Assembly (NCBI GenBank): GCA_002771135.1
Contig: PCXO01000005.1
Coordinates: 38,061-102,060, forward strand
DNA from: Candidatus Yanofskybacteria bacterium CG10_big_fil_rev_8_21_14_0_10_46_23
GTDB lineage: Bacteria > Patescibacteriota > Minisyncoccia > 2-02-FULL-40-12 > IGHO2-12-FULL-4
Length of the DNA: 64,000 bases
Direction of reading: 5' to 3'
Made by a program: the position numbers and the translations under genes. The notes below the pieces were generated by a model that ran no database searches, was not told where the DNA came from, and saw nothing but the letters and a program-made list of their open reading frames with translations. Shown piece after piece: positions 2,176 through 62,614 of the stretch (the stretch's first letter is position 1; every line of letters starts with the position of its first letter).

Positions 2176-3237
2176 GTGGGAATGCTTATGTTGGGACGAT
2201 TTTTCGGCTTATTTTCAAAAGATATTGGAATTGATTTAGGGACGGCAAACACCCTTGTTTATGTGCGAGGTCGGGGGATTGTTATCAATGAGCCCTCAGT
2301 TGTGGCGGTTAACCAAAAAACCGGGCGAGTGCTGGCCATCGGAGAGGAGGCGCGAAAAATGGTTGGCCGGACTCCCGGCTATATTTCGGTCTATAAGCCG
2401 TTGGTTAACGGCGTAGTTTCAGATTTTGAAGTGACCGAGCAGATGCTCAAATATTTTATCGATAAAGTTCATGAGGGTAATTTCCTATTTCCCCCGCGAC
2501 CCCGGGTGGTGGTGGGCCTTCCCTCGGGAGTGACGGAAGTGGAGCGTCGCGCGGTGGAGGATGCCACTTATAATGCTGGCGCTCGGGCTGTCTTTTTGAT
2601 TGAAGAACCGATGGCGGCGGCAATCGGGGCCCGCCTACCTATTCAAGATGCTTCGGCCAACGTTATCGTTGACATTGGGGGTGGGACGACCGAAGTGGCG
2701 GTAATTTCGATGGGGGGAATGGTTACCTCGCGGTCGCTTCGAATAGCCGGAGATGCTCTAACTAAAAATATTATTCAATACTTGCGAGAAGAGCACAATC
2801 TTTTTATCGGTGATGCGACCGCCGAACGCTTGAAAATTGAACTCGGCTCTGCCTTCCCTCTGGAAGAAGAACTGGAATCGACGGTTCGCGGTCGAGATTT
2901 GGTTACGGGACTACCCAAAGAAATAAAAATTACCTCTCAACAGGTTCGGGTTGCTTTAGCTCCTTCCGTCCAAAGAATTGTTGCCTCGGTTCGAAGCGCG
3001 ATTGAAGAGACCCCGCCGGAACTCATTGCCGATTTGTTGAATCGTTATATCTACATTTCCGGTGGCGGAAGTTTGCTCCGAGGACTGGATGAACTAATCG
3101 CCAAAGACACTAATTTACCGGTGCGAGTCGTTGACGACCCGCTAACCTCGGTGGTTCGAGGCTGTGGCTTGGTGCTAGAGAATATCGACGAGTTACAAGA
3201 TATTTTAGTTTCGACTCAAAAGGAGGGCTATGTTTAA
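2176..3237 (+). CDS. mreB: rod shape-determining protein MreB (actin-like ATPase)
   Basis: GIDLGTANTLVYVRGRGIVINEPSVVAV N-terminal phosphate-1 motif; 353 aa; GTG start at 2176, alternative ATGs at 2182 and 2188. Confidence 0.9.
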   Translation: MGMLMLGRFFGLFSKDIGIDLGTANTLVYVRGRGIVINEPSVVAVNQKTGRVLAIGEEARKMVGRTPGYISVYKPLVNGVVSDFEVTEQMLKYFIDKVHEGNFLFPPRPRVVVGLPSGVTEVERRAVEDATYNAGARAVFLIEEPMAAAIGARLPIQDASANVIVDIGGGTTEVAVISMGGMVTSRSLRIAGDALTKNIIQYLREEHNLFIGDATAERLKIELGSAFPLEEELESTVRGRDLVTGLPKEIKITSQQVRVALAPSVQRIVASVRSAIEETPPELIADLLNRYIYISGGGSLLRGLDELIAKDTNLPVRVVDDPLTSVVRGCGLVLENIDELQDILVSTQKEGYV

Positions 3238-4009
3238 TTCCTCACAAATTATCGCTCGATTTTTATTTTTTTTCAGTATCTTTTTAATTGGGGTTATCAC
3301 GGCCGGGGGGTTTCTCCGGGGGGCTCCTTTCTATTTCTTTTCTCGGCCGGTCGCGGGAGCCACCGAAATTAGCTTAGAGCTAAGATACTTTTGGCAATCC
3401 CTAACAAATTATAGAGAAATTTTTGAAGAAAATATTTTTCTGCGTCAAAAATATTCCGAACGACTCTCGCAGGAAGCCCGTGTGGCACAACTGGAGGCGG
3501 AGAATAAGCAACTTCGAGACCAATTGAAAATTGGGCCGGTTCCTCAAAACAAACTATTGCCGGTGCGGATTATTTTGAGTAAAGATGGTTTAGTCCAGTC
3601 CGGGGTTTTGATTGATTCTGGCACCTCGAGCGGTATTGAGGTGGGCGATGTTTTAATTTATGGCGGGAATGCCTTTATCGGGGTTGTCCAAGAGGTTTTT
3701 GACACAACGGCTCGAGTCACTCGACTTGGAGATCCCAGTTTGGAGATAAGTTTAGAGACAAATCGGGGCGTCCTTGCTTCAACTGAGGGAAAGATTGATA
3801 ACAATATTGAACTCAATCTGGTTTCGATTGACGAACAGGTCTCTATTGGAGATCTAGTCTTCACCAGTGGGCTTGACGGTTTGGCCCGAGGGGTTATTGT
3901 CGGGGTTGTCGTTCGTTCCGAATCTCCAAGTGGGGAATTATTCCAAAAAGTGGAGGTGGAACCGATTGTTAAAGTAATCGACTCCAATCAAGCTTTTGTC
4001 TTAAAATAA
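3230..4009 (+). CDS. mreC: rod shape-determining protein MreC
   Basis: Directly downstream of mreB, overlapping its stop; N-terminal TM, a coiled coil (QLEAENKQLRDQLK) and a beta-rich C-terminus. Confidence 0.65.
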   Translation: MFNSSQIIARFLFFFSIFLIGVITAGGFLRGAPFYFFSRPVAGATEISLELRYFWQSLTNYREIFEENIFLRQKYSERLSQEARVAQLEAENKQLRDQLKIGPVPQNKLLPVRIILSKDGLVQSGVLIDSGTSSGIEVGDVLIYGGNAFIGVVQEVFDTTARVTRLGDPSLEISLETNRGVLASTEGKIDNNIELNLVSIDEQVSIGDLVFTSGLDGLARGVIVGVVVRSESPSGELFQKVEVEPIVKVIDSNQAFVLK

Positions 4010-4010
4010 T

Positions 4011-4379
4011 TTGATGAAGTATTTATTCGGAATTATTTTTGGTTTATTTTATGATTTTGTTTTATCCGCTGGCTTTGGCTTACCTTCGGTAAACATTTTG
4101 CCGATTGTCTTGGTGTTACTTTTAATTAGCTCGGGGCGTCTTAATCGGCAGAGGTTATTCTTTGTTGGTTTGGGCGTTTTGGTCTATGATGCTTTCCAGC
4201 CCCACCACTTTGGTCTGGTTGCTTTCGCCTTTGCCTTATCCCTCGGCTTAGTTACGCTCATTAAAGAGCGGTTAATCCGTTTTGAGGCCCGCCCCCTATC
4301 GATCTTGTCTTTTGGCTTGATAATTGGCGCGATTCAATTTATGGCTCTTTCGGCTCTTGTCCGCATCTGGCCGGTTTAA
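4011..4379 (+). CDS. mreD: rod shape-determining protein MreD (polytopic membrane protein)
   Basis: 122-aa highly hydrophobic protein between mreC and the PBP2 gene; canonical gene order. Confidence 0.5.
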   Translation: MMKYLFGIIFGLFYDFVLSAGFGLPSVNILPIVLVLLLISSGRLNRQRLFFVGLGVLVYDAFQPHHFGLVAFAFALSLGLVTLIKERLIRFEARPLSILSFGLIIGAIQFMALSALVRIWPV

Positions 4380-4389
4380 TTTAGAGGTG

Positions 4390-6267
4390 ATGAATAAAAA
4401 ATATCGTATTTCTCCAAATGAAGATTTTGTTGATCCCGAGGAAACTTTGGCGGGTTCGCGGGGGCATGTTTCAACGATGGAGCATCCGGTTTCCGGGTCT
4501 ATTTTCCAAATTATTTTATTGGGGATAGTTTTTGTCTTAGTTTTCTATTTCATTTTTATTCTTCGCCTCTCTGTCGTCTCGGGGGGCGATCTTCGGTCGG
4601 CGGCAATTAGAAATGCCTCACTCAGTTATATTGTTTCGCCACCTCGAGGAACAATTTTTGATCGAAATGGTCAGACTCTGGCCTTTAATCTTCCCAATTT
4701 TAAACTGTTGCTAATCTCTCGACATGCTTCGATAAAATCACTTGAGAATGGAGCGGGACTCAGAATTGCCCAGATTTTAGATATTAGTGAAGCTGAAGTT
4801 GAGGCTGATTTTAATAGAATTAGTCGGGAGTCAGTCGTAGAGATAAAGAAGGATATTTCCAAAGAGCAGGCGGTTCAATTGGGCCAACTGGATATTCCGG
4901 GCTTAGTCGTGGTCTCCGAACCAGAGCGGGTCTATCCGCACGGTTCATATTTCTCGCATATCATTGGCTATATTAATAATGTTTCCGAAAAAGATCTTAA
5001 CCGAGATAGTTACTATTATCTTCGAGACAAAATTGGCCGAACCGGGATTGAGGCGACTTACGAAGCAATTTTACGGGGCGAGCATGGGGTCATCAATTTT
5101 TCTCAAGAGCATGTTGATCCGCAGAAAATTGTTGAGGAGGAATCCGGGAATAGTTTGGTTTTAAATATTGATTCCACTATCCAACAAGATCTCTTTGACA
5201 GCCTTGAAAAGGCGCTGAGATCGGCGGGGTTACATCGAGGGGCAGCGGTTATCCAAAATCCGAATAGTGGAGCGGTACTGGGGTTGGTCAGTTTCCCGAC
5301 CTACGACAATAATGAACTCCAAGATTCCTTAACCCAAGATCAAGTGACGCGTTTGTTTCAGGATTCGAATCGGCCTCTTTTTAATCGGGCTATCGGGGGT
5401 CTCTATAGCCCCGGTTCAACCATAAAGCCTCTTTACGCCCTAGCCGGCCTAAACGAAAAGACGATCACCCCCCAGACTTCGATAACCGACCTAGTCGGCT
5501 TTATTACCATTCCAAATCAGTTTGACCCCAATATTGTCTATACTTATCGAGATTGGAAGATCCAAGGCACGGTTGATCTTCGAAAAGCGATTGCCCAATC
5601 ATCAGACATCTTCTTTTATTCCGTCGGTGGGGGCTATGGAAACATCAAGGGGTTGGGTATTGATCGAATCACAAAATATTTAAGAGATTTTTTGGCGGAT
5701 AAAGCTTTAGGGATTGATTTGGCGGGGGAACAATCCGGATTTGTTCCGGACCCGACTTGGAAACTAGCTACGAAGGGGGAGCCTTGGTTTACCGGGGATA
5801 CCTATAATATCTCAATTGGTCAAGGAGATCTCTTGGTAACCCCGCTCTGGCTCAGTACTTACACCGCCGCGATTGCCAACGAGGGGATAATTTACCGACC
5901 TGAAGTTGTAAATAAAATTGTGAACAAGGAAAATGAAACTTTAGAGCTGTTTGAAAAAGAGATTATCGGTCAAGTTGATTTTGATCTTGCCGACCTTAGG
6001 GCGGTTCAGGAAGGTATGCGTCAAACGGCGACTACCGGAACGTCTCGATTATTGGCAAATTTGCCCGTGCCGGTGGCGGCAAAAAGCGGAACGGCCGAGG
6101 TGCTAAAGGGGAAGAGTTCCAACTCATTAATCACTGTCTACGGCCCCTATCAAGATCCTAATTTTGTTTTATCGGTTGTGATTGAGGGAATCAATCAAAA
6201 CCAGCAGGGTTTGGCGACGCAGGTAGCCTATGATTTCCTCACCAAATATTTTGCTAAAAATTTATAA
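4390..6267 (+). CDS. mrdA: penicillin-binding protein 2 (peptidoglycan D,D-transpeptidase)
   Basis: GAGGTG RBS then ATG at 4390; PPRGTIFDRNGQTLAFN dimerisation-domain signature; SxxK as STIKP, KTG-like as KSGTAE. Confidence 0.85.
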   Translation: MNKKYRISPNEDFVDPEETLAGSRGHVSTMEHPVSGSIFQIILLGIVFVLVFYFIFILRLSVVSGGDLRSAAIRNASLSYIVSPPRGTIFDRNGQTLAFNLPNFKLLLISRHASIKSLENGAGLRIAQILDISEAEVEADFNRISRESVVEIKKDISKEQAVQLGQLDIPGLVVVSEPERVYPHGSYFSHIIGYINNVSEKDLNRDSYYYLRDKIGRTGIEATYEAILRGEHGVINFSQEHVDPQKIVEEESGNSLVLNIDSTIQQDLFDSLEKALRSAGLHRGAAVIQNPNSGAVLGLVSFPTYDNNELQDSLTQDQVTRLFQDSNRPLFNRAIGGLYSPGSTIKPLYALAGLNEKTITPQTSITDLVGFITIPNQFDPNIVYTYRDWKIQGTVDLRKAIAQSSDIFFYSVGGGYGNIKGLGIDRITKYLRDFLADKALGIDLAGEQSGFVPDPTWKLATKGEPWFTGDTYNISIGQGDLLVTPLWLSTYTAAIANEGIIYRPEVVNKIVNKENETLELFEKEIIGQVDFDLADLRAVQEGMRQTATTGTSRLLANLPVPVAAKSGTAEVLKGKSSNSLITVYGPYQDPNFVLSVVIEGINQNQQGLATQVAYDFLTKYFAKNL

Positions 6268-6926: not shown

Positions 6927-8399
6927 ATGGCCCTTGAAGAAATTCGAAAAATAAAAATAAATAAGGTTGAGCGACTTCGAAAAAACGGGGCGGAACCCTA
7001 CCCGGCTTTAGTTGAGAGAACCCACACCATCGCCGAGGCGAAAGATGACTTTGAAAATTTACAAAACTCAGGCGAAACAATTACAATTGTCGGTCGGGTG
7101 GTCTCTCGTCGAGAACACGGCGGGTCGATCTTCATAAATTTGATCGATGGTGGGGGCGAGTTTCAGACATATTTGAAAAAAGACATTGTCGGCGAGGCGG
7201 TTTTCCAATCATTTATAGATTTTGCCGATGTCGGAGATTTTCTAGAGGTTTCCGGGAAACCTTTTACCACTAAAAAAGGTGAACCGACTCTAGAGATAAA
7301 TAGCCTTCGGATTATCTCTAAGGCTATCCTGCCGATGCCGGAGAAGTGGCACGGTTTAAAGGATGTTGAGGAGCGTTTTCGAAAACGTTATCTGGATTTG
7401 ATTTTCAATAAAGACGTTCGAACCAGTTTTGAGTTGCGGACAAAAATAATTGTGGCGGTCCGAAATTATTTTATCGATCACGGCTTCATGGAGGTTGAAA
7501 CCCCGATTCTCCAACCATTGGCGGGCGGGGCTTTGGCTCGACCCTTCAAAACGCATATGAACGACCTAGATTTGGATCTTTATCTCCGCGTTGCCCCCGA
7601 ACTCTATCTGAAGCGTCTTCTGGTCGGAGGGTTTGAACGAGTTTTCGAGATCGGAAAAGATTTTCGCAATGAGGGCATGGATCGAGAGCATAACCCGGAA
7701 TTCACGATGTTGGAGGCTTATGCGGCCTATCGCGACTACAACTGGATGATGGATTTTATCGAGAGCTTATTTAGAAAAGTTGTTAAAGAGGTTTTTGATA
7801 CGGAGAAAATTGAGACCGAAAAGGGGGAAATTAATTTTGGCCAACCCTTCCCGCGGCGGACTTTTAATGATTTATTGAAAGAACACGCTGGGGTGGATTA
7901 TGACGAAATTAGTGAGGCGGATTTAAAGATCAAAGCGGCGGATCTCGGGATCAAAGTCGAAGATAAAATGTCCAAAGGTCTTGTGGCTGATGAGATTTAT
8001 AAAAAGGTGGCTCGACCGGGGATCATTCAGCCAACCTTTATTATCAATCATCCCCTTGATATTTCTCCTTTGGCTAAAAAGATGCCGACGAATCCCAGTC
8101 ATGTTGAGCGATTCCAGCTCCTTTTGGGGGCGATGGAGGTGGCCAATGCTTTTTCCGAGCTGAATGATCCGATTGATCAGCGGGAACGCTTTGCCACCCA
8201 AGAAAAGAATCGAGATCGGGGTGATGAGGAGGCGCATCGGATGGACAATGATTTTATCGAAGCTTTAGAATATGGAATGCCCCCGGCCGCTGGCGTGGGG
8301 ATTGGGATAGACCGACTCGTTACGCTCTTGACGGGAGCCCATACGCTAAGAGAGATAATTTTATTCCCAACCATGAAGCCGGTTAAGATCGAAGAATAA
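6927..8399 (+). CDS. lysS: lysyl-tRNA synthetase, class II
   Basis: OB-fold N-domain (GRVVSRREHGGSIFINL) and class II core (FRNEGMDREHNPEFTMLEAY, GIGIDRLV). Confidence 0.9.
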   Translation: MALEEIRKIKINKVERLRKNGAEPYPALVERTHTIAEAKDDFENLQNSGETITIVGRVVSRREHGGSIFINLIDGGGEFQTYLKKDIVGEAVFQSFIDFADVGDFLEVSGKPFTTKKGEPTLEINSLRIISKAILPMPEKWHGLKDVEERFRKRYLDLIFNKDVRTSFELRTKIIVAVRNYFIDHGFMEVETPILQPLAGGALARPFKTHMNDLDLDLYLRVAPELYLKRLLVGGFERVFEIGKDFRNEGMDREHNPEFTMLEAYAAYRDYNWMMDFIESLFRKVVKEVFDTEKIETEKGEINFGQPFPRRTFNDLLKEHAGVDYDEISEADLKIKAADLGIKVEDKMSKGLVADEIYKKVARPGIIQPTFIINHPLDISPLAKKMPTNPSHVERFQLLLGAMEVANAFSELNDPIDQRERFATQEKNRDRGDEEAHRMDNDFIEALEYGMPPAAGVGIGIDRLVTLLTGAHTLREIILFPTMKPVKIEE

Positions 8400-8400
8400 C

Positions 8401-9708
8401 ATGTTAGATATTAAATTCATTCGAGAAAACTTTGAGTTTGTAAAAAAAGCCGCTCATGATAAGGGCTGTAAGCTTGATTTTGATAAACTTCTAAAGCTGG
8501 ATAAGGAACGGCGAGATTTATTGGGTGAGCTGGAAAAACTTCGGGCTAATCAAAACAAAGGTTCGAAAGCTAAACCGACCCCGGAGGAGCAGGGGGCCCT
8601 AAAAAACAATAAGCAAAGGATCCAAGCCCAAGAAAAAGAGCTCGAGGGGGTTACAACTGAATTTGACGCGCTCATGCTTAAAATCCCCAATCCGGCGATG
8701 GCCGATGTCCCCGTCGGTAAAGATGAGGCTGATAACCAAGTCATTCGAAAGTGGGGTGAGCCTCGGGAATTTAAGTTCCGAGTTCGAGATCATGTTGAGC
8801 TGGGGGAGATTTTAGATGTTATTGATATTGATCGCGCGACCAAGGTTTCGGGCGCGCGCTCGGCTTATTTAAAGGGTGGCGCGGTTAAAATTCAATTTGC
8901 CTTAGTTCAGTTTGTTTTTGAGGCGCTGACTAATGAGAAAACTCTGGCCAAAATTATAAAATCAATGGGAGAGAAAATCAATCCAAAACCGTTTGTTCCG
9001 GTTGTTCCCCCGGTTATTATCAAGCCCGAACCCTTCCGCCGGATGGCTCGACTCTCCGAGGCTGACAAAGACGAACGCTATTACCTTCAACAAGATGATA
9101 AGTACTTGGTTGGGAGTGCCGAACACACTCTCGGTTCAATGTTTATGGACGAGATTATTGATGAACGCGATCTCCCAATCCGCTTCTTAGGCTATTCGAC
9201 TAGCTTTCGACGCGAGGCCGGTTCCTATGGGAAGGATACCCGAGGGATTCTTCGAGTGCATCAATTTGATAAGTTAGAGATGGAGTCATTTACGGTTGGC
9301 GAAGATTCGCTTAAAGAACACAACTTTTTTGTCGCGATTCAGGAATACTTGATGCAACAACTCGACATCCCATATCAGGTCATTTTAGTCTCTACCGGCG
9401 ACATGGGTGGCCCGGATGCTCACCAAGTGGACATTGAGGCTTGGATCCCGGGTCAAAATAAATATCGAGAAACTCATACTGCTGACTTAATGACCGATTA
9501 TCAGGCTCGTCGACTTCAAACCCGAGTCCGACGGCTCAATGGTCAAATTGAAGTTGCTCACACCAACGATGCGACCGCTTTTGCTATCGGCCGAATTCTT
9601 ATTGCCATCTTAGAGAATAATCAAGAAGAAGACGGGTCAGTTAGAATCCCCAAGATTTTACAAAAGTATCTTGGTCAAAAGGTAATTAGGCCCCCGGAAA
9701 ACAAATGA
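8401..9708 (+). CDS. serS: seryl-tRNA synthetase
   Basis: MLDIKFIRENFEFV start, N-terminal coiled-coil arm, class II motifs; 435 aa. Confidence 0.9.
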   Translation: MLDIKFIRENFEFVKKAAHDKGCKLDFDKLLKLDKERRDLLGELEKLRANQNKGSKAKPTPEEQGALKNNKQRIQAQEKELEGVTTEFDALMLKIPNPAMADVPVGKDEADNQVIRKWGEPREFKFRVRDHVELGEILDVIDIDRATKVSGARSAYLKGGAVKIQFALVQFVFEALTNEKTLAKIIKSMGEKINPKPFVPVVPPVIIKPEPFRRMARLSEADKDERYYLQQDDKYLVGSAEHTLGSMFMDEIIDERDLPIRFLGYSTSFRREAGSYGKDTRGILRVHQFDKLEMESFTVGEDSLKEHNFFVAIQEYLMQQLDIPYQVILVSTGDMGGPDAHQVDIEAWIPGQNKYRETHTADLMTDYQARRLQTRVRRLNGQIEVAHTNDATAFAIGRILIAILENNQEEDGSVRIPKILQKYLGQKVIRPPENK

Positions 9709-10565
9709 ACAAATTAATTTGTTTTCTAAACGGCCAATTTCTCCCGATCACCGAGGCCAAGATTTCGGTCCAAGATCTGGGGCTCTCCCGAGCTTTTGGA
9801 GTTTTTGACAGTATCCGGCTTTATCGGGGCCAACCCCTCCATCTCGAAGATCACCTAAATCGATTCCGGGAATCGGCCAACGTGATCAACTTAGAACTGC
9901 CCGATAATTTTGAAGAAATGCCCGCCGTGATTAAGGCCCTTTTTGAAAAGAATAACGCTAATTTCAAAACGGACGCCTTTGTCAAAATTATTCTTACCGG
10001 GGGGCCTTCTCCTGATAGTTTCAGCTACAGTAGAGACCACTCAACCCTGATGGCCTTAATGTTTGGACTTTCGGATAATCTTGCGATTGAACAGACGGAG
10101 GGTGTAAAGGCGATTACCCAAGAGTACAAAAGAATTTTTCCCGAGGCCAAAACTTTAAATTATACGGTTCGGTTCGCTCTTCAAGATAAAATTAAATCAG
10201 CCGGAGCCAAAGAGTTGGTTTATATTCATGATGGAAAAATTCTAGAGGGTTCGATGAGCAATTTTTTCCTAATAAAAGATAACCTTTTAGTCACCCCGGA
10301 CTCCGGAATTTTAAAAGGCGTTACCCGAAAAGTTGCTCTACATCTGGCTCAAGAGGCTAATTTTGAAATTCAAGAACGTCCGGTCCTACTGTCGGAGCTA
10401 GCTTCTGCTCAAGAGGCCTTTATCACTTCAACGGCCCGGGAAATAACGCCATTGGTGCAACTGGATGAGACGGTCATTGGCGGTGGTCAGCCCGGAGTCA
10501 AAACGAAACAGTTGATCGAGACCTTCAAGCGCTATGTTCAGGATTACTCGCCGCCGGCCCTATAA
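9705..10565 (+). CDS. class IV (fold-type IV PLP) aminotransferase; D-amino-acid / branched-chain aminotransferase / ADC lyase family
   Basis: GVFDSIRLYRGQPLHLEDHLNRFRESA N-terminal signature of the IlvE/Dat/PabC family; 286 aa. Confidence 0.65.
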   Translation: MNKLICFLNGQFLPITEAKISVQDLGLSRAFGVFDSIRLYRGQPLHLEDHLNRFRESANVINLELPDNFEEMPAVIKALFEKNNANFKTDAFVKIILTGGPSPDSFSYSRDHSTLMALMFGLSDNLAIEQTEGVKAITQEYKRIFPEAKTLNYTVRFALQDKIKSAGAKELVYIHDGKILEGSMSNFFLIKDNLLVTPDSGILKGVTRKVALHLAQEANFEIQERPVLLSELASAQEAFITSTAREITPLVQLDETVIGGGQPGVKTKQLIETFKRYVQDYSPPAL

Positions 10566-10587
10566 AGATCGACTCCATTCTCGAAAA

Positions 10588-11352
10588 ATGAAACATCAGC
10601 GTCTAAGATGGGCCTTTTTGGCGTTGGGGCTATTGGTAGTTTTGGGAGTGGGGATTTATGGTTTGTTTTTTGCCGACCTTTTTAATGTTGAAGCGATTGA
10701 GATTTCTGGAAACAGCGCCATCAATCACAATTTAATTTTAGATTCGGTTAACCAATATCTCGAAAACCGTCGCTTTAATATCCCCCGACGACTGAATATA
10801 TTTTTGGTCAATAAGGATAGCCTTGCCGAAGCGATTCGGGGCGTTTCCTCCCGGATTGAAACGGTTAAGATAAAGAAGGGTTTATTCCATGAAATCAAGG
10901 TCGAGATAACGGAATTTAAAACTTTTGGGGTTTGGTGCCAATTAAAAATTGACCAATGTTTTTCGATTGATAAGGCCGGGCGTGCTTTTGAAGAAGCGCC
11001 CGCTTCTTCGGGCTTGATTCTTCTCCATGTTGATGACCATCGAGATAAAACGCTTGAAATTGGCCAGACGGTCCTTGAGAAAGATTGGTTAGAGCAACTG
11101 ATCTTGGCGCGAGAACTTCTTGATCAAAAATTGGAGTTAAAGACCCTGAACATAGTTTTAGTCGAAGATGGTTTTGGTGAGTATCAAATTGAGACTAACG
11201 AAGGTTGGCGCCTTCTTTTGAAGAGAGATTTGTCGACGCAAAATCAGATCGACGCCCTGAGTATATTCTTGGAGAAAGAACTTACAAAATCGGAACGAGC
11301 AAATTTAACCTATGTTGACGCGCGGATAAAAAACCGCTTTTATTATCAGTAG
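10588..11352 (+). CDS. ftsQ: cell division protein FtsQ/DivIB-like (POTRA domain)
   Basis: ATG at 10588 gives MKHQRLRWAFLALGLLVVLG... (N-terminal TM) then a POTRA-like region (NVEAIEISGNSAINHNLI). Confidence 0.5.
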   Translation: MKHQRLRWAFLALGLLVVLGVGIYGLFFADLFNVEAIEISGNSAINHNLILDSVNQYLENRRFNIPRRLNIFLVNKDSLAEAIRGVSSRIETVKIKKGLFHEIKVEITEFKTFGVWCQLKIDQCFSIDKAGRAFEEAPASSGLILLHVDDHRDKTLEIGQTVLEKDWLEQLILARELLDQKLELKTLNIVLVEDGFGEYQIETNEGWRLLLKRDLSTQNQIDALSIFLEKELTKSERANLTYVDARIKNRFYYQ

Positions 11353-11371
11353 TTTTTAAGGGAGGTTTCTA

Positions 11372-11584
11372 ATGTATCAGCGATGCTGCTTCTGTGGTCG
11401 GGGCAGAGTTGTCCTGAAAAGAGTGCGATGCGAGGTGGGCCAGAGACCTGCTTTCGCCTGCGTAGATTGCCTTGAGAGAGGGGAAACTCAGTGCTCCCGT
11501 CATCCCCGTCGGAGATTGATCCGGGGCGAATCCCTGAATTGCTCCGGCTGTAAGAAAAATTTTGTCCCCACTTTACAGGGCTGA
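11372..11584 (+). CDS. small Cys/Arg-rich protein (9 Cys, 12 Arg in 70 aa; three CxxC pairs), putative zinc-ribbon protein
   Basis: AGGGAGGT RBS 7 nt upstream of the ATG; CCFC...CVDC...CSGC spacing; GC content clearly above surroundings. Confidence 0.4.
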   Translation: MYQRCCFCGRGRVVLKRVRCEVGQRPAFACVDCLERGETQCSRHPRRRLIRGESLNCSGCKKNFVPTLQG

Positions 11585-11621
11585 CCTCGTTTCTTTAGGA
11601 GAGGGACGGGGTTTTTGTTTA

Positions 11622-13397
11622 CTAAAATTTATAAATGAAGATAGAGTTTCCGATTCGTTCGACGGGCTCTTGGTTTAAGAGCCAACCATAGTTTTGCTCC
11701 GGATCGGCCAGACTATTTACTAAAAAAGTAGCGGAGACGCCGATCCAACCCTCCGATTGATTATGATTTTTAAAATCAACCAAGTTTCGATAAGTTCCGG
11801 AGTTTATCCAGATTCTACGGCCGGGTAAATAGTATTCGGGATCGGCCCAGCCGAAGTAATCCAGATCAATTTTTTTAATATCATTCTCGATCAGCCAATC
11901 GCCTAAGCGTTTTAAATCCTGCCCCCAGTCTAGGTTGGAATCAACCACGATCTCGTGCGCGTTTTCCTGAGGCACGGTTTCATTAAAATAGGTTAAGTAA
12001 TAGGGGTAGATTGAGTGGTTCTCGTAGAAATACCAACCTAATAATCCCACAATAAAGAGACTAAATCCGGCTAATCCCTTTTTATAATGATATTGTTTTA
12101 GATGCTTAAAAATTTTATCAATCTGTCCGGCGACTAAGATAATGGTGAAGGGGTAAATTGGCAGAATGTGTCGAAGGCCGATATTAAGGTTACTTCGAAT
12201 ACTGATAAACCAATACAGGGCCAACCAAAGAAGCATAAAAAACTCTAAAAAGTTCTCCCGAATCAGTTTAAGGGGTCGGCGATAATTGGCGCGATCAGCC
12301 CGGAGACCGATAAAGATGAGGGCGGAAATAACTAAAGCCCACCAAGCCAGCGGTTCTTTAACAAGATAAACGATGGGGAAATAACTTTTTCGGCCATCTT
12401 GGGTTATATCTCCCAAAAAGAAAGCCGTGTTCCCGCCCTCTGATCGCTGTAGGGTTAGACCCAGACCAAGAGCATAGTGTCCGAGGGCCCGGAGCCCCGA
12501 TTTATCACTGGCCCAGCGAAGGATATTTTTAGGGGCATTGTCTGGGAAAGATTGAGTTAAGCTCGTTGTGTCGCTAACTTGGCGCTCAAGAGGATAATTT
12601 TTTGTCAGGACTAAGTAAGTTGGCCAGATTATTATCAAAAAGGTGACAAAAATAATTAAGATGGTTTTGCCGGTAAGGTTAGCTCCCCGAATAATTTTTT
12701 GTTTAAGAAGCAAACCGCTCTGTGTTAGGCCAAAAATAAAGGCGCTAATGATAAAGAAGGGGATTAATAGAATAGTTGAGAATTTAGCAAGGAGGGCGAA
12801 ACCGAGTCCGAGAATCAGCCCTAAAGCATTCTTTCTCGTTTGGTGATGAAGAAATCTTAAAAATAGAAATGAGGCCAAAGTTACTCCGAACATAGCCAAA
12901 AAATCAGTTGCCACGAATCGACTGTGAGCGATAATTGTCGGCGAGAAGGCGAAAATAATTAGAGCAATAAATCCCCCGATTGTTCCGTAATGATTTTTTG
13001 TCCAGCTAAAGATTAGGAGGCTGGCCAGAGCGAAGATGCCAACAAAGGGAAATTTTACGCTCCGGGTAGCCTGCTGAGAGTCCGTGATGGTTCCAAATAA
13101 AAGTTGCCGACCAAATTCCCATTGACCATTCAGGGCTTCAGTCCAACTTGCCGATTGAAATAGGCCGGCGTCATCAAAGTTCAGAAATAACAGCGGAGTC
13201 GCTCCGATAAGCTTTGCTAGGGGTGGGTGCTCGGGGTTAAGGCGATAATCTAACTTGGTCAAATACGAATAACCGGCCCCGATATGCGGGACCTCGTCGA
13301 CGATAAGAGAATCTTGCCAGAAACTGCCAATTGACAAGATTAGAGATAGGATGATAATGGCAGAGGCGATTAAAGCTCTCTGAATCTGAGTCTTCAT
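11622..13397 (-). CDS. lipid-carrier-dependent glycosyltransferase, GT39/GT83 (PMT/ArnT-like) family, polytopic membrane protein
   Basis: 591 aa, about 12 TM; N-terminal loop with DEVPH and NPEHPPLAK motifs characteristic of PMT/ArnT-type C-type glycosyltransferases. Confidence 0.6.
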   Translation of the reverse strand: MKTQIQRALIASAIIILSLILSIGSFWQDSLIVDEVPHIGAGYSYLTKLDYRLNPEHPPLAKLIGATPLLFLNFDDAGLFQSASWTEALNGQWEFGRQLLFGTITDSQQATRSVKFPFVGIFALASLLIFSWTKNHYGTIGGFIALIIFAFSPTIIAHSRFVATDFLAMFGVTLASFLFLRFLHHQTRKNALGLILGLGFALLAKFSTILLIPFFIISAFIFGLTQSGLLLKQKIIRGANLTGKTILIIFVTFLIIIWPTYLVLTKNYPLERQVSDTTSLTQSFPDNAPKNILRWASDKSGLRALGHYALGLGLTLQRSEGGNTAFFLGDITQDGRKSYFPIVYLVKEPLAWWALVISALIFIGLRADRANYRRPLKLIRENFLEFFMLLWLALYWFISIRSNLNIGLRHILPIYPFTIILVAGQIDKIFKHLKQYHYKKGLAGFSLFIVGLLGWYFYENHSIYPYYLTYFNETVPQENAHEIVVDSNLDWGQDLKRLGDWLIENDIKKIDLDYFGWADPEYYLPGRRIWINSGTYRNLVDFKNHNQSEGWIGVSATFLVNSLADPEQNYGWLLNQEPVERIGNSIFIYKF

Positions 13398-13414: not shown

Positions 13415-13678
13415 ATGCCCTCAGTCTTTCTTATTTTATTTCTAGGAATTATTACCCTGCTGATTTGTTTTTTAACTTTGGCAGGGGTGTTCCTTCTGGG
13501 TTACTGTCTCGCTAAGGTCGCTTGGGTCTTGTTTCTAAAAAATGATGCGGAGTTTAAAGATGTCGCTGAATTCTTCGTCATTTCTTTGTTTGGCGGGTTG
13601 ATCTTAGCTCTCGGTAGCTTTCTTAGTTTCCTAGTTCATCTATTTTCACTCATCGCTACCTTGGCGGCAAATTCATGA
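13415..13678 (+). CDS. small hydrophobic membrane protein (hypothetical)
   Basis: AAGGAGA RBS; 87 aa with 2-3 TM segments. Confidence 0.3.
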   Translation: MPSVFLILFLGIITLLICFLTLAGVFLLGYCLAKVAWVLFLKNDAEFKDVAEFFVISLFGGLILALGSFLSFLVHLFSLIATLAANS

Positions 13679-18374: not shown

Positions 18375-18668
18375 ATGTATTATGTATATATTTTATACAG
18401 TTCAAAATCTAAAAACTTTTATTTTGGCTATACCGAGAATCTAAAGAAAAGATTTGGGGAACATAATAAAGGACTATCAAAAGCTACGGCTCCATATATA
18501 CCCTGGAAATTAGTATTCTATAGTGCTTTTGATACCATTAAAAAAGCCAAAGATTTTGAACTGTATTTAAAAACAGGATCGGGTAAAGCTTTTGCTTATA
18601 AAAGATTATTAAATTCCGAAGCCTTGAAGAAGGATTTGGGCCGAGGTGTTCCGAAACTCGGAGAGTGA
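18375..18668 (+). CDS. GIY-YIG nuclease family protein (small stand-alone)
   Basis: MYYVYILYSSKSKNFYFGYTENLKKRFGEHN - canonical GIY...YIG and R...E...N motifs; immediately downstream of tRNA-Gln. Confidence 0.75.
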   Translation: MYYVYILYSSKSKNFYFGYTENLKKRFGEHNKGLSKATAPYIPWKLVFYSAFDTIKKAKDFELYLKTGSGKAFAYKRLLNSEALKKDLGRGVPKLGE

Positions 18669-25699: not shown

Positions 25700-26542
25700 A
25701 TGAAAACTAGGGAGCTGGTTCGAAAGGTCTACGAGACCTACTATGCTTTTCGGTGGGCCGTGTTGGGAGTTTTTGGCTTTATCACGGTAAGCCAAATTTT
25801 AAATCTTATTTCGCCCTATCTGCGGGGTAAAGTCGTCGACGGCTTCGTCAACAAGATACCGATCGGTGAGATTTACGCCATCATCGGCTTGGCCATTTTG
25901 GCCAACTTTACTCAGGTTGTTCTAGTGCGGTATTTTCGAGAAGTCTATGAATCTCATTACATTGACTTCTCGGTTCGCCGACACATTAGTCGAAGAATGA
26001 TTGGGAGACTGCTCCAGTTTTCGATTAGTCAACACGCTAACGAAAACTCGGGCGTGAAGATGGAGGTTATCAAGAAAGGGGAGCATGCCTTGACGGCTTT
26101 GGCTTTCCAAATCCTCTATCGGATTATTCCGACCATCGTGGAGGTAGCCTTTCTGACGAGCGTCTTATTTTATTTTAGCCCATTTTTAGGGGCCCTGGCC
26201 CTTGGGGGCGTTGTTGCCTACGTCCTCTTTGTCGTTTTTGTGAACACCCACTTTCGGGGTGATTACGAACGGATTGAGGGCCTCTACAATGACAGCTCAA
26301 AATTTCAAGGAGAAGTCTTGCGAAATATCGAGTCGGTCATCGCCAACGCCCAGGAAGCGCGGATTGCCCGCGAGGCCGATATCAACTTTGGTCGGGCTCT
26401 CGGGGTTCATCAAGAGATGACGATTCGATTCGATCGTTTCGCCCTAATCCGAAATTCGATCATTGTTCTTTTCGGAGGCGGATTTCTCGGAATTGGGGCA
26501 CCTTGGTCAATCAGGGCGTCCATACTCTTGGAGAGTTGGTAA
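25700..26542 (+). CDS. ABC exporter, transmembrane domain portion (type I exporter fold); frame-interrupted relative to the downstream NBD
   Basis: Six TM helices with ABC_membrane-type spacing; ends in ...VLFGGGFLGIGAPW, then a frame change. Confidence 0.65.
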   Translation: MKTRELVRKVYETYYAFRWAVLGVFGFITVSQILNLISPYLRGKVVDGFVNKIPIGEIYAIIGLAILANFTQVVLVRYFREVYESHYIDFSVRRHISRRMIGRLLQFSISQHANENSGVKMEVIKKGEHALTALAFQILYRIIPTIVEVAFLTSVLFYFSPFLGALALGGVVAYVLFVVFVNTHFRGDYERIEGLYNDSSKFQGEVLRNIESVIANAQEARIAREADINFGRALGVHQEMTIRFDRFALIRNSIIVLFGGGFLGIGAPWSIRASILLESW

Positions 26543-31552: not shown

Positions 31553-31984
31553 GTGAGATCAAAAATCACAAAATTTATTGCCTTAATCAGCGGACTAGGG
31601 ATTATCGATACAGCCTATCTTTCTTGGCAACATTTTAATTATAACCCGCTCCAGTGCAGTTTCTTCAGTGGCTGTGACATTGTTACCACCAGTCGATTCG
31701 CCGTGATCGGGGGCATCCCCTTGGCTCTGATAGGTCTTTTGTTTTATGCGATTGTTTTTATTTTAAATCTAATTTCCGAAAAACATCGATCGGCTCAAAA
31801 GATTTTATTGATTTTAGCTACGATCGGTTTTGGCGTCTCTGTTGTTTTACTCTATCTTCAAATTTTTGTGATTAAAGCTTTATGTATCTATTGTTTAACC
31901 TCATTTGCAACCTCAACGCTGATTTTTATCGCTCTCCTTTCTTCTCTTCGAAAAAACAAAAACCCCATCGCCTCGACTAGATAG
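31553..31984 (+). CDS. vitamin K epoxide reductase (VKOR) family membrane protein
   Basis: 4 TM; loop cysteines CSFFSGC and active-site CxxC (CIYC) in the last TM. Confidence 0.6.
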   Translation: MRSKITKFIALISGLGIIDTAYLSWQHFNYNPLQCSFFSGCDIVTTSRFAVIGGIPLALIGLLFYAIVFILNLISEKHRSAQKILLILATIGFGVSVVLLYLQIFVIKALCIYCLTSFATSTLIFIALLSSLRKNKNPIASTR

Positions 31985-33008
31985 TCAATTGAATGGGGTA
32001 GAATTTTCTAAGGAAGCTCTTGACGCGTTCACCAAGAACTTCAAAGACCACATGATCCGGGTGGATTTTTTTCACGCGGATGGCCAACCCGGCGATCCGC
32101 TCTTCCGCCCCTGGGAGGGCCGTGGCCGCTAAAGCCAGAATCGGGTCCGCTTTAGGATCACAGTCGAAAATTCGACAAAAGTCCGACCACTTTTGGGAAT
32201 CCTCTTCCACGAATTTTCGGATCATATAAGCCAAGAGGTGTCGAGCAATATCGACCCTCCCGTTTTCCAGCCGAAGGTAGCTATAGCGAGCCACGCTTTC
32301 GGCTAGCTTTCTTAAATTAATGTACCGGAGGGGATCGGAAAATTTGCTCCCTCGATTCATTCCATAAACCTTGTCGGAGAATAGGAAGAATTTATGGAGC
32401 TGATAGTTCAAGATAGGGTTTTTAAGTTCCCCCCTTAAAATATCCGCCAGAAGAAGCGGGTCTTCCTTTAGGACTGAAAATCGCTTTCCGGAATAAATCG
32501 GGTAGCGTTTCGGCCAGCTTTCGATTACACGCCCCTTGCTTCGAGCGGTTACTTGGAATCTGGATTGCTCAATATCCAAACCGGGCCGGGCCCAGTTTTC
32601 GGCTTGGATATCGGCTTCGTACTGAAGCATCGCCAGAATATGCGGGCGAACAAGGCGGTACTGGTCCGGGGTAAGCCAAGATACTTTTTTCCTTGACGGG
32701 ACCCAGACCTTCCCCTCTGGCCCCTGCATATTGTTTGGGTGGTTGGCCCGTGTGGCCCCAATCCCAATTTCGCAGAGGTCAACAACTTTAGGAATAGCCA
32801 CCCCGTACCTTTTAGAGACCTTGATAAAATCAGGGGCGAGTTTTTGGGGTCTCCCGATGATGGTCATCAGGGCCAGGCGAGGCCCAGAGGAGTCTGCGAT
32901 CTTTATCTCAACCCCGTCGGGATCAGTGATCGTGATTAGATATCGACTTAAGTGGGAGACGAGCTCCAAGTCGCGTCTAACCTTTTGAAGCGTTTTTTGG
33001 GTTATCAT
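31977..33008 (-). CDS. hypothetical protein (343 aa), second gene downstream of the reverse transcriptase; candidate effector
   Basis: No recognisable motif; start is 12 nt after the stop of the 437-aa gene, so likely translationally coupled. Confidence 0.45.
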   Translation of the reverse strand: MITQKTLQKVRRDLELVSHLSRYLITITDPDGVEIKIADSSGPRLALMTIIGRPQKLAPDFIKVSKRYGVAIPKVVDLCEIGIGATRANHPNNMQGPEGKVWVPSRKKVSWLTPDQYRLVRPHILAMLQYEADIQAENWARPGLDIEQSRFQVTARSKGRVIESWPKRYPIYSGKRFSVLKEDPLLLADILRGELKNPILNYQLHKFFLFSDKVYGMNRGSKFSDPLRYINLRKLAESVARYSYLRLENGRVDIARHLLAYMIRKFVEEDSQKWSDFCRIFDCDPKADPILALAATALPGAEERIAGLAIRVKKIHPDHVVFEVLGERVKSFLRKFYPIQLTI

Positions 33009-35423: not shown

Positions 35424-35459
35424 TGCGATCTCTCCTTCTTTATTGTTTTTTTAAAAATC

Positions 35460-35650
35460 AGCAGGGGGAGTCTCGAACCCGAAACCGATTTTTGCTGAGG
35501 TTGCTAGGAAGCTCGGTGCGAAAAAACACCTTACTCTCCTTTTTGGATTCTAGCCGAACCCTACGCGCTATGTGAATAGCGCGCACCCGCTCTGAGCGGA
35601 TCGGCCCTCACTTAGATGGTTAAGGTTCTTCCGCGACTCCCCCCTGTCCT
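35460..35650 (-). ncRNA. structured non-coding region immediately upstream of the RT, bounded by inverted repeats; candidate retron msr/msd-like ncRNA
   Basis: CAGGGGGAGTC (35462-35472) is the reverse complement of GACTCCCCCCTG (35635-35646), one nt apart; internal hairpins (CGCGCTAT-TCAC-ATAGCGCG; CCGCTC-TG-AGCGG); GC-rich; no ORF. Confidence 0.45.
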
Positions 35651-35714
35651 TCCTAGACCGCTGAGGTGCTAGGAGGCTGATTTTATATTCGCACAATGGG
35701 GTAAATTTACAATA

Positions 35715-42897: not shown

Positions 42898-42918
42898 AAC
42901 ATCGAGTAAAATAAACAT

Positions 42919-43203
42919 ATGCTCAAAGAATACATAAAATACTTAAAAGACAATCCGCGGGGGTATTGGTTCAAAGCTCGGCTCTACGGTTGGGGCTGGG
43001 TTCCTGCCCGATGGCAGGGCTGGCTTGTGGTGGCTATTGGCCTAGCCATTTTCATTCTCGGGATTTACGTCGGGGAGGCTGATGACGCGCCCGGGGCGGC
43101 CCTCTTGGGCTTTCTGCTGATGCTTGCCCTGATATCCACCTTCGGTTATTGGAAGGGCGAAAAGCCTCGTTGGCAATGGGGACCGCCAAAGGAAAGAAAA
43201 TAG
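42919..43203 (+). CDS. small membrane protein (hypothetical), GC-rich
   Basis: 94 aa, 2 TM, Trp-rich. Confidence 0.35.
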   Translation: MLKEYIKYLKDNPRGYWFKARLYGWGWVPARWQGWLVVAIGLAIFILGIYVGEADDAPGAALLGFLLMLALISTFGYWKGEKPRWQWGPPKERK

Positions 43204-43225
43204 TTTATACTGTAAAACATAATAT

Positions 43226-44284
43226 ATGCGGACAAAAAACATTCTTGTTATCGTAATCAGTAGCACCATTATCGTCGTGGCATTATTGTTTGGTTTTCGG
43301 TCCTTGGCCCCTAATGGTGATCAACCCAGCCCGGTGAACTTTACCCAAGAGGGAAACGTGGTAAGAGATAACCCGGGGTTTAAACCCGGAGTCTGGTACT
43401 TGGTCTACGAACAGTCGGGATCATCGGCCCTAACCAAGGAATTAGACTTGGCTGATATTGCCCCTCTCCCTTTACAAAACGGGGAGCAGGTGCACGTAGA
43501 AGGGCGTGAGCGCGCCGGCGTGGTAAAGGTAACAAGTCTGCAAATTCTTAACGGATATTATGACGACCTGATTTGGGTTGAGGCGCCCTTGCCGGATCAA
43601 ATCGTGGCCAGCCCACTTCTTATCACGGGGCAGGCGCGCGGGAACTGGTATTTTGAGGCCTCCTTTCCGGTAACATTACTGGACGCGAATGGTAAAGTCT
43701 TGGTCCAAAAGCCCGCTCAAGCACAGGGTGACTGGATGACGGCTGAATATGTGCCATTTTCGATCACACTTGATTTTATTAACCCGGCCACCGATACCGG
43801 CACGCTGATATTACATAATGATAATCCATCGGGATTGCCTGAAAACGATAAAGAATTGCGCCTCCCGGTTCGCTTTACCGTTGCAAGTCAAACGGTCAGC
43901 CTTTATTACTATAACGCCGAAAACGACAAGGACGCTTCGGGCAATATATTGTGTTCAAGCCAAGGGTTGGTACCGGCGCAAAGGCAGATTCCCGTTTCGC
44001 AAACCCCGATACAAGATACGATAAATCTATTATTACAGGGGCAATTAACCGCTACGGAAAGATCCGCGGGGGTTACCACGGAATATCCTCTGTCTGGATT
44101 TACATTACAGGGAGCAAATCTCCGAAACGGAGATTTGACTTTGGATTTTTCTGATCCCGAGAATAAAACCGGCGGGGGATCGTGCCGGGTAGGAATTTTA
44201 TGGAAACAGATTGAAGCCACCGCCCAGCAATTCCCGGGAGTCAATCAAGTTAAGTTTATTCCGGAATTCCTTTTCCAACCCTAA
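43226..44284 (+). CDS. GerMN / Gmad2 (Ig-like) domain-containing secreted protein
   Basis: N-terminal TM; C-terminal LYYYN...ILCSS...LQGQLTATERSAG...GFTLQGANLRNGDLTLDFSD pattern of the GerM N-domain. Confidence 0.55.
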   Translation: MRTKNILVIVISSTIIVVALLFGFRSLAPNGDQPSPVNFTQEGNVVRDNPGFKPGVWYLVYEQSGSSALTKELDLADIAPLPLQNGEQVHVEGRERAGVVKVTSLQILNGYYDDLIWVEAPLPDQIVASPLLITGQARGNWYFEASFPVTLLDANGKVLVQKPAQAQGDWMTAEYVPFSITLDFINPATDTGTLILHNDNPSGLPENDKELRLPVRFTVASQTVSLYYYNAENDKDASGNILCSSQGLVPAQRQIPVSQTPIQDTINLLLQGQLTATERSAGVTTEYPLSGFTLQGANLRNGDLTLDFSDPENKTGGGSCRVGILWKQIEATAQQFPGVNQVKFIPEFLFQP

Positions 44285-50094: not shown

Positions 50095-50340
50095 TTAAAT
50101 TGTCCGTAAGATTTGTTTGAGCTTTCTTCGCCCACCTCCATTTTTCCAGTATAGTTCTCTTTTTCTTGCCTCTATTGATGTATTAAACTCTTCAGAAAAC
50201 AATAGATCTAATGGGCGCCTGAATTTAGTAGATTTTACTTGTCCCGAATTATGTTTCTTTAACCTCTCCTCCAGATTATTTGTATAGCCGACATAAGTTT
50301 TGTTATCCTTATTGCTTTTTAGGATATAAATATAAAACAC
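50095..50340 (-). CDS. GIY-YIG nuclease family protein (small stand-alone)
   Basis: MFYIYILKSNKDNKTYVGYTNNLEERLKKHNSGQ...; lies between tRNA-Gly and tRNA-Thr. Confidence 0.75.
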   Translation of the reverse strand: MFYIYILKSNKDNKTYVGYTNNLEERLKKHNSGQVKSTKFRRPLDLLFSEEFNTSIEARKRELYWKNGGGRRKLKQILRTI

Positions 50341-61496: not shown

Positions 61497-61606
61497 GACT
61501 TTATTATGCCATAAATTTATGCATATTTCAAATAAAGGCCTCTGGATATAATTTGATTCGTTAGGGTCGAAATGATAGGGTGGAGACGCAATAAGACCTC
61601 CAATTT

Positions 61607-62614
61607 ATGTTTAACCGAAAAATCGGCATTGATTTAGGGACGACCAACACTCTGGTTTTTTTACCTAATAAGGGTATCGTTATCCGCGAACCCTCCGCGG
61701 TTGCCATTTCTGTTTTGGATAATTCGATAATGGCCGTGGGGGATCAAGCCAAGGAGATGGTTGGTCGGACCCCGGACAGTATTATTGTTTCTCGACCCCT
61801 GAAAGAGGGCGTCATCGCTGATTATCGAGTAACCGAAGCAATGCTTCGCTACTTCATAAAAAAAGCCAGTAGCAGTTTTAACATTTTCAAACCCGAGGTC
61901 CTTGTCTCCATCCCGGCCGGGATTACCTCCACCGAAAGACGGGCCGTCATTGAAGCAACCATAAATGCCGGCGCTCGATCGGTCTATCTCGTTAAGGAGC
62001 CGGTCTTGGCAGCCATCGGGGCCGGGATATCAATCAACAGTCCTTCGGGCAACATGATTTTAAATATTGGGGGCGGGACAACGGAGATTGCCGTTGTCAG
62101 CCTCGGCGGGATTGTGACTTCGTCTTCGGCCAGAATCGGCGGGAATAGAATTGATCAAGCTATTGTTGATTATATTAAGAAGCATCATGGCCTCGCGATT
62201 GGGGATCGGACGGCCGAATTAATAAAGATCGCCATTGGGAGCGCCGTTAAACAAACACAGGAAGAACGAATAAATATCCGGGGGCGAGATTTAACCTCCG
62301 GCTATCCAAAGATTGTTGAAATTACCTCCAATGAAATAACCGAGGCGATTCAGGAGCAACTTCAGGAGATAATCCAGACCGTAAAAAATGTTCTTCAGGA
62401 CACCCCCCCCGAACTCTGCTCGGACATTATGGATAAGGGGATTATGATTTCCGGCGGGGGCGCCCTGATTAAAAATATCGACACCCTCGTCACTCGAGTT
62501 ACGGGCGTACCGGCCCAGATTGCCGATGAACCACTTCTTTGTGTCGCCAAGGGGACCGGAGTCGTCTTGGATAGCCTCGATGTCTATAAACGTAATATCG
62601 TCTCGAAAAAATAA
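61607..62614 (+). CDS. MreB-like actin-family ATPase (second paralog)
   Basis: MFNRKIGIDLGTTNTLVFLPNKGIVIREPSAVAI; 335 aa; not followed by mreCD. Confidence 0.8.
   Translation: MFNRKIGIDLGTTNTLVFLPNKGIVIREPSAVAISVLDNSIMAVGDQAKEMVGRTPDSIIVSRPLKEGVIADYRVTEAMLRYFIKKASSSFNIFKPEVLVSIPAGITSTERRAVIEATINAGARSVYLVKEPVLAAIGAGISINSPSGNMILNIGGGTTEIAVVSLGGIVTSSSARIGGNRIDQAIVDYIKKHHGLAIGDRTAELIKIAIGSAVKQTQEERINIRGRDLTSGYPKIVEITSNEITEAIQEQLQEIIQTVKNVLQDTPPELCSDIMDKGIMISGGGALIKNIDTLVTRVTGVPAQIADEPLLCVAKGTGVVLDSLDVYKRNIVSKK

Follow-up and report, generated by a model that had tools for sequence, protein, structure and literature searches.

The 64-kb window studied here, by which we mean the whole stretch of DNA that was analysed, comes from Candidatus Yanofskybacteria bacterium CG10_big_fil_rev_8_21, an uncultivated groundwater bacterium of the Candidate Phyla Radiation. 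A gap of 269 nucleotides (nt) at 11353-11621 separates a + strand ftsQ-like gene, whose stop lies at 11352, from a convergent minus-strand glycosyltransferase gene, whose stop lies at 11622. We put the probability at roughly 55% that this gap holds a genuine unannotated small gene, coding for a translated metal-binding protein with putative sites, which would be an orphan and possibly a recent acquisition. Briefly, the small gene would be the last cistron of the serS-dat-ftsQ transcript and would be translated from its own Shine-Dalgarno (SD) site, and the transcript would end at a hairpin that starts at the stop codon. The predicted product is a strongly basic, cytoplasmic protein of 70 amino acids (aa), with a putative C4 site (C5xxC8 ... 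C30xxC33) followed by a putative C3H site (C41xxH44 ... C57xxC60), and with C6 and C20 as presumed spare cysteines.

A cysteine-rich reading frame in the gap after ftsQ

The unannotated open reading frame (ORF) of 70 codons and a TGA stop occupies 11372..11584 on the + strand and translates as MYQRCCFCGRGRVVLKRVRCEVGQRPAFACVDCLERGETQCSRHPRRRLIRGESLNCSGCKKNFVPTLQG. It contains 9 Cys and 12 Arg, and its 16 Arg+Lys against 5 Asp+Glu give a net charge of about +11. Three CxxC pairs are found at C5-C8, C30-C33, and C57-C60, together with one CxxH at C41-H44. The residue counts and the three pairs (CCFC, CVDC, and CSGC), which an earlier sequence-only reading of this DNA had listed, are confirmed by the translation. 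The ORF is not extendable upstream, as its stop-to-stop frame starts at 11360. When the gap was shuffled by dinucleotides 5000 times, an ATG-initiated ORF of at least 70 codons arose 104 times (2.1%). The cysteine pattern is non-random: at least 9 in-frame Cys were reached in 4 of 5000 shuffles of the ORF and at least three CxxC in none of 5000, with the limit that these chance tests are post hoc, the ORF having been chosen for its Cys richness. Nine of the 14 TGY triplets fall in the ORF frame (p = 0.017). Furthermore, among the ORFs of 30-130 aa in all six frames of the window, no second one combines 4 or more Cys with 2 or more CxxC.

Read directly from the sequence, the SD site GGGAGG (11360..11365, + strand) stands 6 nt 5' of the ATG, and 19 nt separate the stop codon of the FtsQ-like gene from the same ATG. 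The initiation region (11340-11400) is no more structured than its shuffles (z +1.25). The same motif is placed ahead of real genes of the window, namely MreC at 3230 and the genes at 25700 and 31977-33008. The sequence-only reading had called this a perfect ribosome-binding site at ideal spacing; a good SD site at 6 nt is indeed present, but an SD-like motif within 22 nt of the longest-ORF start is found in just about 12 of the 61 long ORFs of the window. SD-led initiation thus seems to be a minority mode in this genome.

On the 3' side, a terminator scan located an intrinsic terminator on the + strand (11583..11621), formed by a hairpin of 14 pairs that overlaps the stop of the small ORF and is followed by TTTTTGTTT. 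The hairpin reaches -17.1 kcal/mol on the + strand (z -3.07) and only -5.3 kcal/mol on the minus strand, where the fold is weak because many of its pairs are G-U and are lost. It is the only significantly structured part of the gap and the first terminator after ftsQ, and it closes a serS-dat-ftsQ-ORF transcription unit. The site scan placed no promoter-like or terminator-like site on the + strand between ftsQ and the small ORF. With the terminator lying 3' of the ORF, the ftsQ transcript is therefore expected to run through it.

The dimensions of the gap also point to a gene. The well-defined convergent pairs elsewhere in the window overlap or lie 5-52 nt apart on the ORF map, and the sole larger convergent gap (42898-43908, about 1 kb) contains further small ORFs. 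Since the genome is compact and the other well-defined convergent gaps do not exceed 52 nt, an empty spacer of 269 nt is unlikely. The gap has the highest guanine-plus-cytosine (GC) content among 21 gaps of the window (0.52 vs 0.26-0.50), the others being AT-rich (0.26-0.42) except for those that carry tRNAs, further small ORFs, or an unassigned stretch. The ORF itself has a GC content of 55%, compared with 41-45% in its neighbours, and the excess is located at codon position 2 (0.54 vs 0.36 in native genes). The amino acids of the ORF combined with genomic codon usage already predict 52.9%, so the excess is mostly a by-product of amino-acid composition. The GC content that had been described as far above that of the neighbouring genes is thus elevated in fact, but modestly.

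The spacing of the motifs suggests two small metal-binding modules of a zinc-knuckle or zinc-ribbon-like kind. At the motif level only, C5xxC8-x21-C30xxC33 and C41xxH44-x12-C57xxC60 both have the form of zinc knuckles. With a net charge near +11, the product would most likely bind nucleic acid or an acidic protein partner. The CxxC-x21-CxxC spacing is like that of DksA/TraR-type fingers, the CxxH ... CxxC arrangement is like that of primase CHC2 fingers, and the small basic product is like the zinc-binding ribosomal proteins L31, L32, L33, L36, and S14. None of the zinc_ribbon_2, DZR, zf-dskA_traR, and zf-CHC2 models matches, however, and the CxxH ... CxxC spacing is 12 residues here versus about 17 in primases.

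Prokaryotic one-domain zinc-finger micro-proteins are often unannotated or lineage-specific, their function is not deducible from sequence, and AlphaFold2 is unreliable on their metal geometry (PMC11241148, PMC10716476, PMC2253796). By the definition of C(P)XCG proteins (PMC11241148), only CCFCG of the window ORF fits CxxCG; CVDCL and CSGCK do not, and the motifs have no Pro. The predicted protein shares with the C(P)XCG proteins HVO_2753 and HVO_0758 of Haloferax volcanii and Brz of Halobacterium a size of about 60-70 aa, several CxxC, and the presence of no other domain. It differs from these haloarchaeal micro-proteins in its host, a bacterium of the Candidate Phyla Radiation, in having no sequence similarity to them, and in that its metal sites are putative. 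A further comparison is offered by CdpC, a haloarchaeal cell-division protein with a dual zinc ribbon (C3H + C4), which also has an amphipathic helix, a long disordered linker, and an FtsZ1-binding domain (bioRxiv 10.64898/2026.07.16.738847). Both pair a C4 with a C3H site and both are linked to cell division, in the present case only by gene adjacency in one genome; CdpC is much larger, the order of its sites is reversed relative to the window ORF, and no homology is expected.

The gap in other assemblies and related loci

Three other assemblies carry the locus with 100% identity over up to 10.8 kb, so the ORF is not an assembly artefact. All other copies of the ORF are identical, which leaves no variation for a ratio of nonsynonymous to synonymous substitutions (dN/dS). 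As an anchor for finding relatives, FtsQ led to no protein in the database other than itself and had no match in GTDB genomes. The aminotransferase encoded between serS and ftsQ, used in the same way, led to a nearest homologue of 42% identity, with no synteny in the contexts fetched. A metagenome scan seeded with SerRS recovered 80 loci, and the nearest relatives among them reach at most 60% identity in SerRS and at most 30% in FtsQ.

Only the locus L011 has the same gap architecture (GreA-AsnRS-SerRS-FtsQ-gap-PMT_2(-)), and its FtsQ and PMT_2 proteins are 30% and 48% identical to those of the window, respectively. Its gap of 734 nt contains a Cys-rich ORF on the minus strand (4774..5037), 3' of the glycosyltransferase gene, coding for 87 aa (70 aa from Met18) with 7 Cys. 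This ORF was predicted by a gene caller in a Logan assembly and forms a cluster of one. The two Cys-rich ORFs share a collinear C-x-F-C near the N-terminus, an A-C-x-C in the middle, and a Q-C at positions 40-41; they differ in strand, and the C-terminal CxxC and the His are not conserved. Their global alignment exceeds composition-preserving shuffles (p about 0.004), BLASTP gives E 0.036 for the pair, and phmmer gives E 24 among 16,629 ORFs. The L011 ORF is surpassed in z by two of 177 unrelated ORFs that contain Cys. The similarity is not significant and may serve as a lead, homology of the two ORFs not being established by it.

We see a slim chance that the window and L011 ORFs are fast-evolving orthologues, forming a family of dual-metal-site micro-proteins at the FtsQ locus of the Yanofskybacteria lineage, or alternatively that a de novo or newly captured gene resides in a streamlined symbiont genome. 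If the former were true, the family could act as an accessory factor of the divisome or envelope, by a logic analogous to that of CdpC, and it would have escaped annotation since gene callers reject its composition.

Other elements occupy the same position among the relatives. Right after the ftsQ stop of L011, a nested-palindrome element of 177 nt (4353-4529) folds at -111 kcal/mol (z -14.5), and a second copy with 98.9% identity lies 4 kb away (8436-8612). The element has no Rfam match and looks like a miniature mobile or repetitive palindromic element of that genome. In three further loci, L019 and L020 (about 8100-8730) and L033 (about 3130-3740), ftsQ is followed by a near-consensus promoter (TTGACA ... 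TATAAT), a GC-rich segment of about 500-600 nt with no credible ORF, and a terminator. The segment has long G+C helices (GTTGGCGGCGGCG ... CGCCGCCGCCAAC); the L019 and L033 versions share 78% identity over the first 150 nt, and Rfam gives no match at E <= 1. The segment may be an undescribed large non-coding RNA of Parcubacteria. No DNA similarity was found between the window gap and these RNA-like segments. Judged from these sequences, the gap after ftsQ is evidently a variable spot among relatives.

Homologue searches and rival explanations

A rival explanation, which we hold to be possible but rather unlikely, is that the ORF is spurious. A GC-richer spacer of 230 nt between ftsQ and its terminator would then be non-coding, either a 3' untranslated region or a leftover of inserted DNA, and the frame, the SD-like hexamer, and the cysteines would be coincidental and without function. 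The homologue searches favour this explanation and weigh against a gene, as do most of the results that follow here and in the next two paragraphs. No family of Pfam-A or NCBIfam was found at E <= 10 for the 70-aa protein; no zinc-ribbon or zinc-finger model and none of the ribosomal protein models (bL31, bL32, bL33, bL36, and uS14) of these collections matches it. PADLOC gave no match, and PHROGs gave only phrog_17160, a function-unassigned family, at E 0.011. Nothing usable was obtained from PDB sequences, where ZBTB20 is the top match (E 0.32). An exhaustive phmmer search of 1.84 billion protein representatives and a word-index protein search both returned 0 matches, and the exact 70-aa sequence is missing from a collection of 15 billion proteins. 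DNA scans seeded with the peptide, which covered GTDB genomes, viral contigs, and JGI metagenomes, detected no homologue; two of them are weak negatives, with none among the roughly 600 candidate stretches listed. As far as these searches reach, the small ORF is not a demonstrable member of any defined family.

Gene callers skip the ORF on two full-length contigs; in favour of a gene, one gene caller began a gene at this ATG on a truncated contig (L003). Since such ORFs are skipped, protein databases may under-represent them and cannot prove a lack of homologues. The synonymous codon usage of the ORF is atypical (z -2.25, p 0.012) and near uniform choice, and just one of 89 real-gene windows scores as low. 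The Cys codons are TGC in 7 of 9 cases (34% in the genome), the Arg codons are AGA in 5 of 12 (12% in the genome), and the codon log-odds score does not favour the ORF frame over the others. Such usage is consistent with a gene that is young or was acquired recently, and also with non-coding sequence. If the ORF is a gene, it would be a lineage-specific orphan whose codon usage suggests a young or recently acquired origin. The horizontal acquisition raised by the sequence-only reading is compatible with this codon usage and with there being no established counterpart in the syntenic relatives recovered; no donor was found for it.

The AlphaFold2 single-sequence model has a mean predicted local distance difference test score (pLDDT) of 45.9 and is unusable for the fold; at low confidence it contains one hairpin (17-22 / 25-30) and a short helix (31-35). 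Given 9 Cys, the occurrence of three CxxC pairs is only mildly unlikely (about 0.08 by our estimate), and spurious alternative-frame ORFs with at least 9 Cys do exist in related loci, with about 2 among 4327 small ORFs in 685 kb. In L011, the nearest syntenic relative, the same gap carries a different Cys-rich ORF on the opposite strand, and L014 and L016 have no gap at all, as ftsQ and the glycosyltransferase gene abut there. The variation of this gap, with unrelated insertions, is also consistent with a spurious ORF. The same holds for the spacing motif of the SD site, GGAGG with an ATG at 4-9 nt, which occurs 15 times in the window, about the number estimated by chance. In contrast, for the ORF to be spurious, four coincidences independent of one another would be needed: a frame that spans the gap (p about 0.02), 9 Cys in that frame (p about 0.001), a strong SD site 6 nt from the start, and a terminator placed after the ORF and not after ftsQ. 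A spurious ORF is also at odds with the short convergent gaps of this compact genome and with the usually AT-rich intergenic DNA. Of the three readings that had been proposed from the letters alone, the small zinc-ribbon-like protein is the best supported. The signals in its favour are intrinsic ones, namely the SD site, the terminator, the Cys pattern, and the gap size; against it stand the lack of a matching family model and an AlphaFold2 model too poor to reveal the fold.

A structured RNA on the + strand, either a regulatory element of the 3' untranslated region or a small RNA processed from the ftsQ transcript, with the ORF incidental, appears improbable. The GC content of the gap is raised relative to other gaps, the whole-gap minimum-free-energy fold pairs the SD region with a downstream segment, and the promoter, segment, and terminator of L019, L020, and L033 indicate that this position can host RNA genes. 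However, no family was matched when Rfam 15 was run on 10800-12200 at E <= 10 with permissive filters; the best scores were 14-17 bits against thresholds of 37-50, with E 7-10. At the gathering score, the whole window yields only six tRNAs. The folding energy is ordinary for the whole gap (z -1.46), the ORF body (z -1.0), and the minus strand (z +0.85). The gap is moreover unlike the RNA-like segments of the relatives at the DNA level, amino-acid composition explains the GC excess, and no promoter-like site on the + strand lies ahead of the gap. The option of a structured RNA, which the sequence-only reading had left beside the protein together with a proposal to scan Rfam, is therefore not borne out; that reading had itself found no motifs of ribonuclease P, signal recognition particle RNA, or transfer-messenger RNA, and the region matches no known non-coding RNA family.

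It is very doubtful that the ORF is real and serves another role, as the precursor of a Cys-modified peptide, as a metal buffer akin to metallothionein, or as what is left of a mobile or phage gene. Nine Cys in 70 aa is a density like that of bacterial metallothioneins and SCIFF-type precursors. The atypical codon usage suggests a foreign origin, and there is the weak match to phrog_17160. Against a precursor of the ribosomally synthesised and post-translationally modified peptides (SCIFF or ranthipeptide type), no maturase is adjacent to the small ORF, the flanking genes being FtsQ-like and PMT_2. Further out, no radical-SAM or other maturase was found among the called or Pfam-scanned genes, which include MreB, MreC, a penicillin-binding protein, GreA, tRNA synthetases, an aminotransferase, GtrA, a DNA polymerase III subunit, and three ORFs without a Pfam match. 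Pfam gives no match to metallothionein or any other family, and the strongly basic protein is unlike metallothioneins. A mobile or phage origin is opposed by the missing flanking repeats, second copy, and PADLOC match, and by the spurious nature of the one phage tblastn match.

Three candidates were rejected. The phage match (Mycobacterium phage Suarez, tblastn E 0.5) is spurious, as it is antisense to an annotated gene. A mobile element was discarded: the region lacks flanking and terminal repeats, has no second copy, and shows no similarity to other loci at the DNA level. A frameshift or read-through extension of ftsQ was likewise dismissed: the ORF is in a different frame, and the C-terminus of FtsQ ends with those of its relatives, with which it aligns end to end.

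Significance and neighbouring genes

If the gap holds a translated small gene, it adds one more to the small Cys-rich proteins missed by standard annotation. Small Cys-rich ORFs that escape annotation have been known before, and the present one is restricted to a single genome. The small proteome of the Candidate Phyla Radiation is essentially unexplored, and the ORF shares an operon with a cell-division gene. Only proof of expression and metal binding, or the emergence of a family, would give it more than limited significance, and at present it is a modest curiosity.

The FtsQ-like gene (10534..11352, + strand) codes for an N-terminal membrane helix and a POTRA domain, recognised by Pfam POTRA_1 barely above the threshold (23.4 bits, cutoff 23). 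Its product is 100% identical to the protein COV31_01005 of a Candidatus Yanofskybacteria metagenome-assembled genome (MAG) at NCBI. The convergent gene (11622..13397, minus strand) codes for a glycosyltransferase of the PMT_2 family (GT-C, mannosyltransferase-like; Pfam PMT_2, E 3.1e-09). The flanks had been named ftsQ and GT39; the former fits the POTRA_1 match, and GT39 is an approximate label for what Pfam matches as PMT_2.

Between serS and ftsQ lies a class IV aminotransferase gene (9705-10565) whose reading frame overlaps both neighbours. Its product is also 100% identical to a protein of a Candidatus Yanofskybacteria MAG at NCBI. The gene is missing at that position in L011, where SerRS is followed directly by FtsQ. 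Its closest homologues reach only about 42% identity, and among the few with a source name several are from Bacteroidota; the gene may be a lateral insertion into the operon. On the other side of the gap, a very hydrophobic ORF of 87 aa with an SD-like site (13415-13678, + strand) is located between two divergent PMT_2 glycosyltransferase genes; it is predicted by gene callers and has no Pfam match.

Two further gaps of the window, 35424-35714 (291 nt, GC 0.49) and 61497-62519 (1023 nt, GC 0.48), contain no convincing ORF and have no Rfam match. They could hold unrecognised RNAs or reflect mis-set gene starts; the gene at 62520, for instance, would be longer if it began at the TTG with an SD site at 62006. 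Two small ORFs of 97 and 81 aa adjoin tRNA genes, at 18375-18668 (+ strand) and 50095-50340 (minus strand), respectively. Their N-termini are alike, with YVYILYS ... FYFGYTENLKKRFGEHNKG in the former and YIYILKS ... TYVGYTNNLEERLKKHNSG in the latter, and we take both to resemble GIY-YIG nuclease domains.

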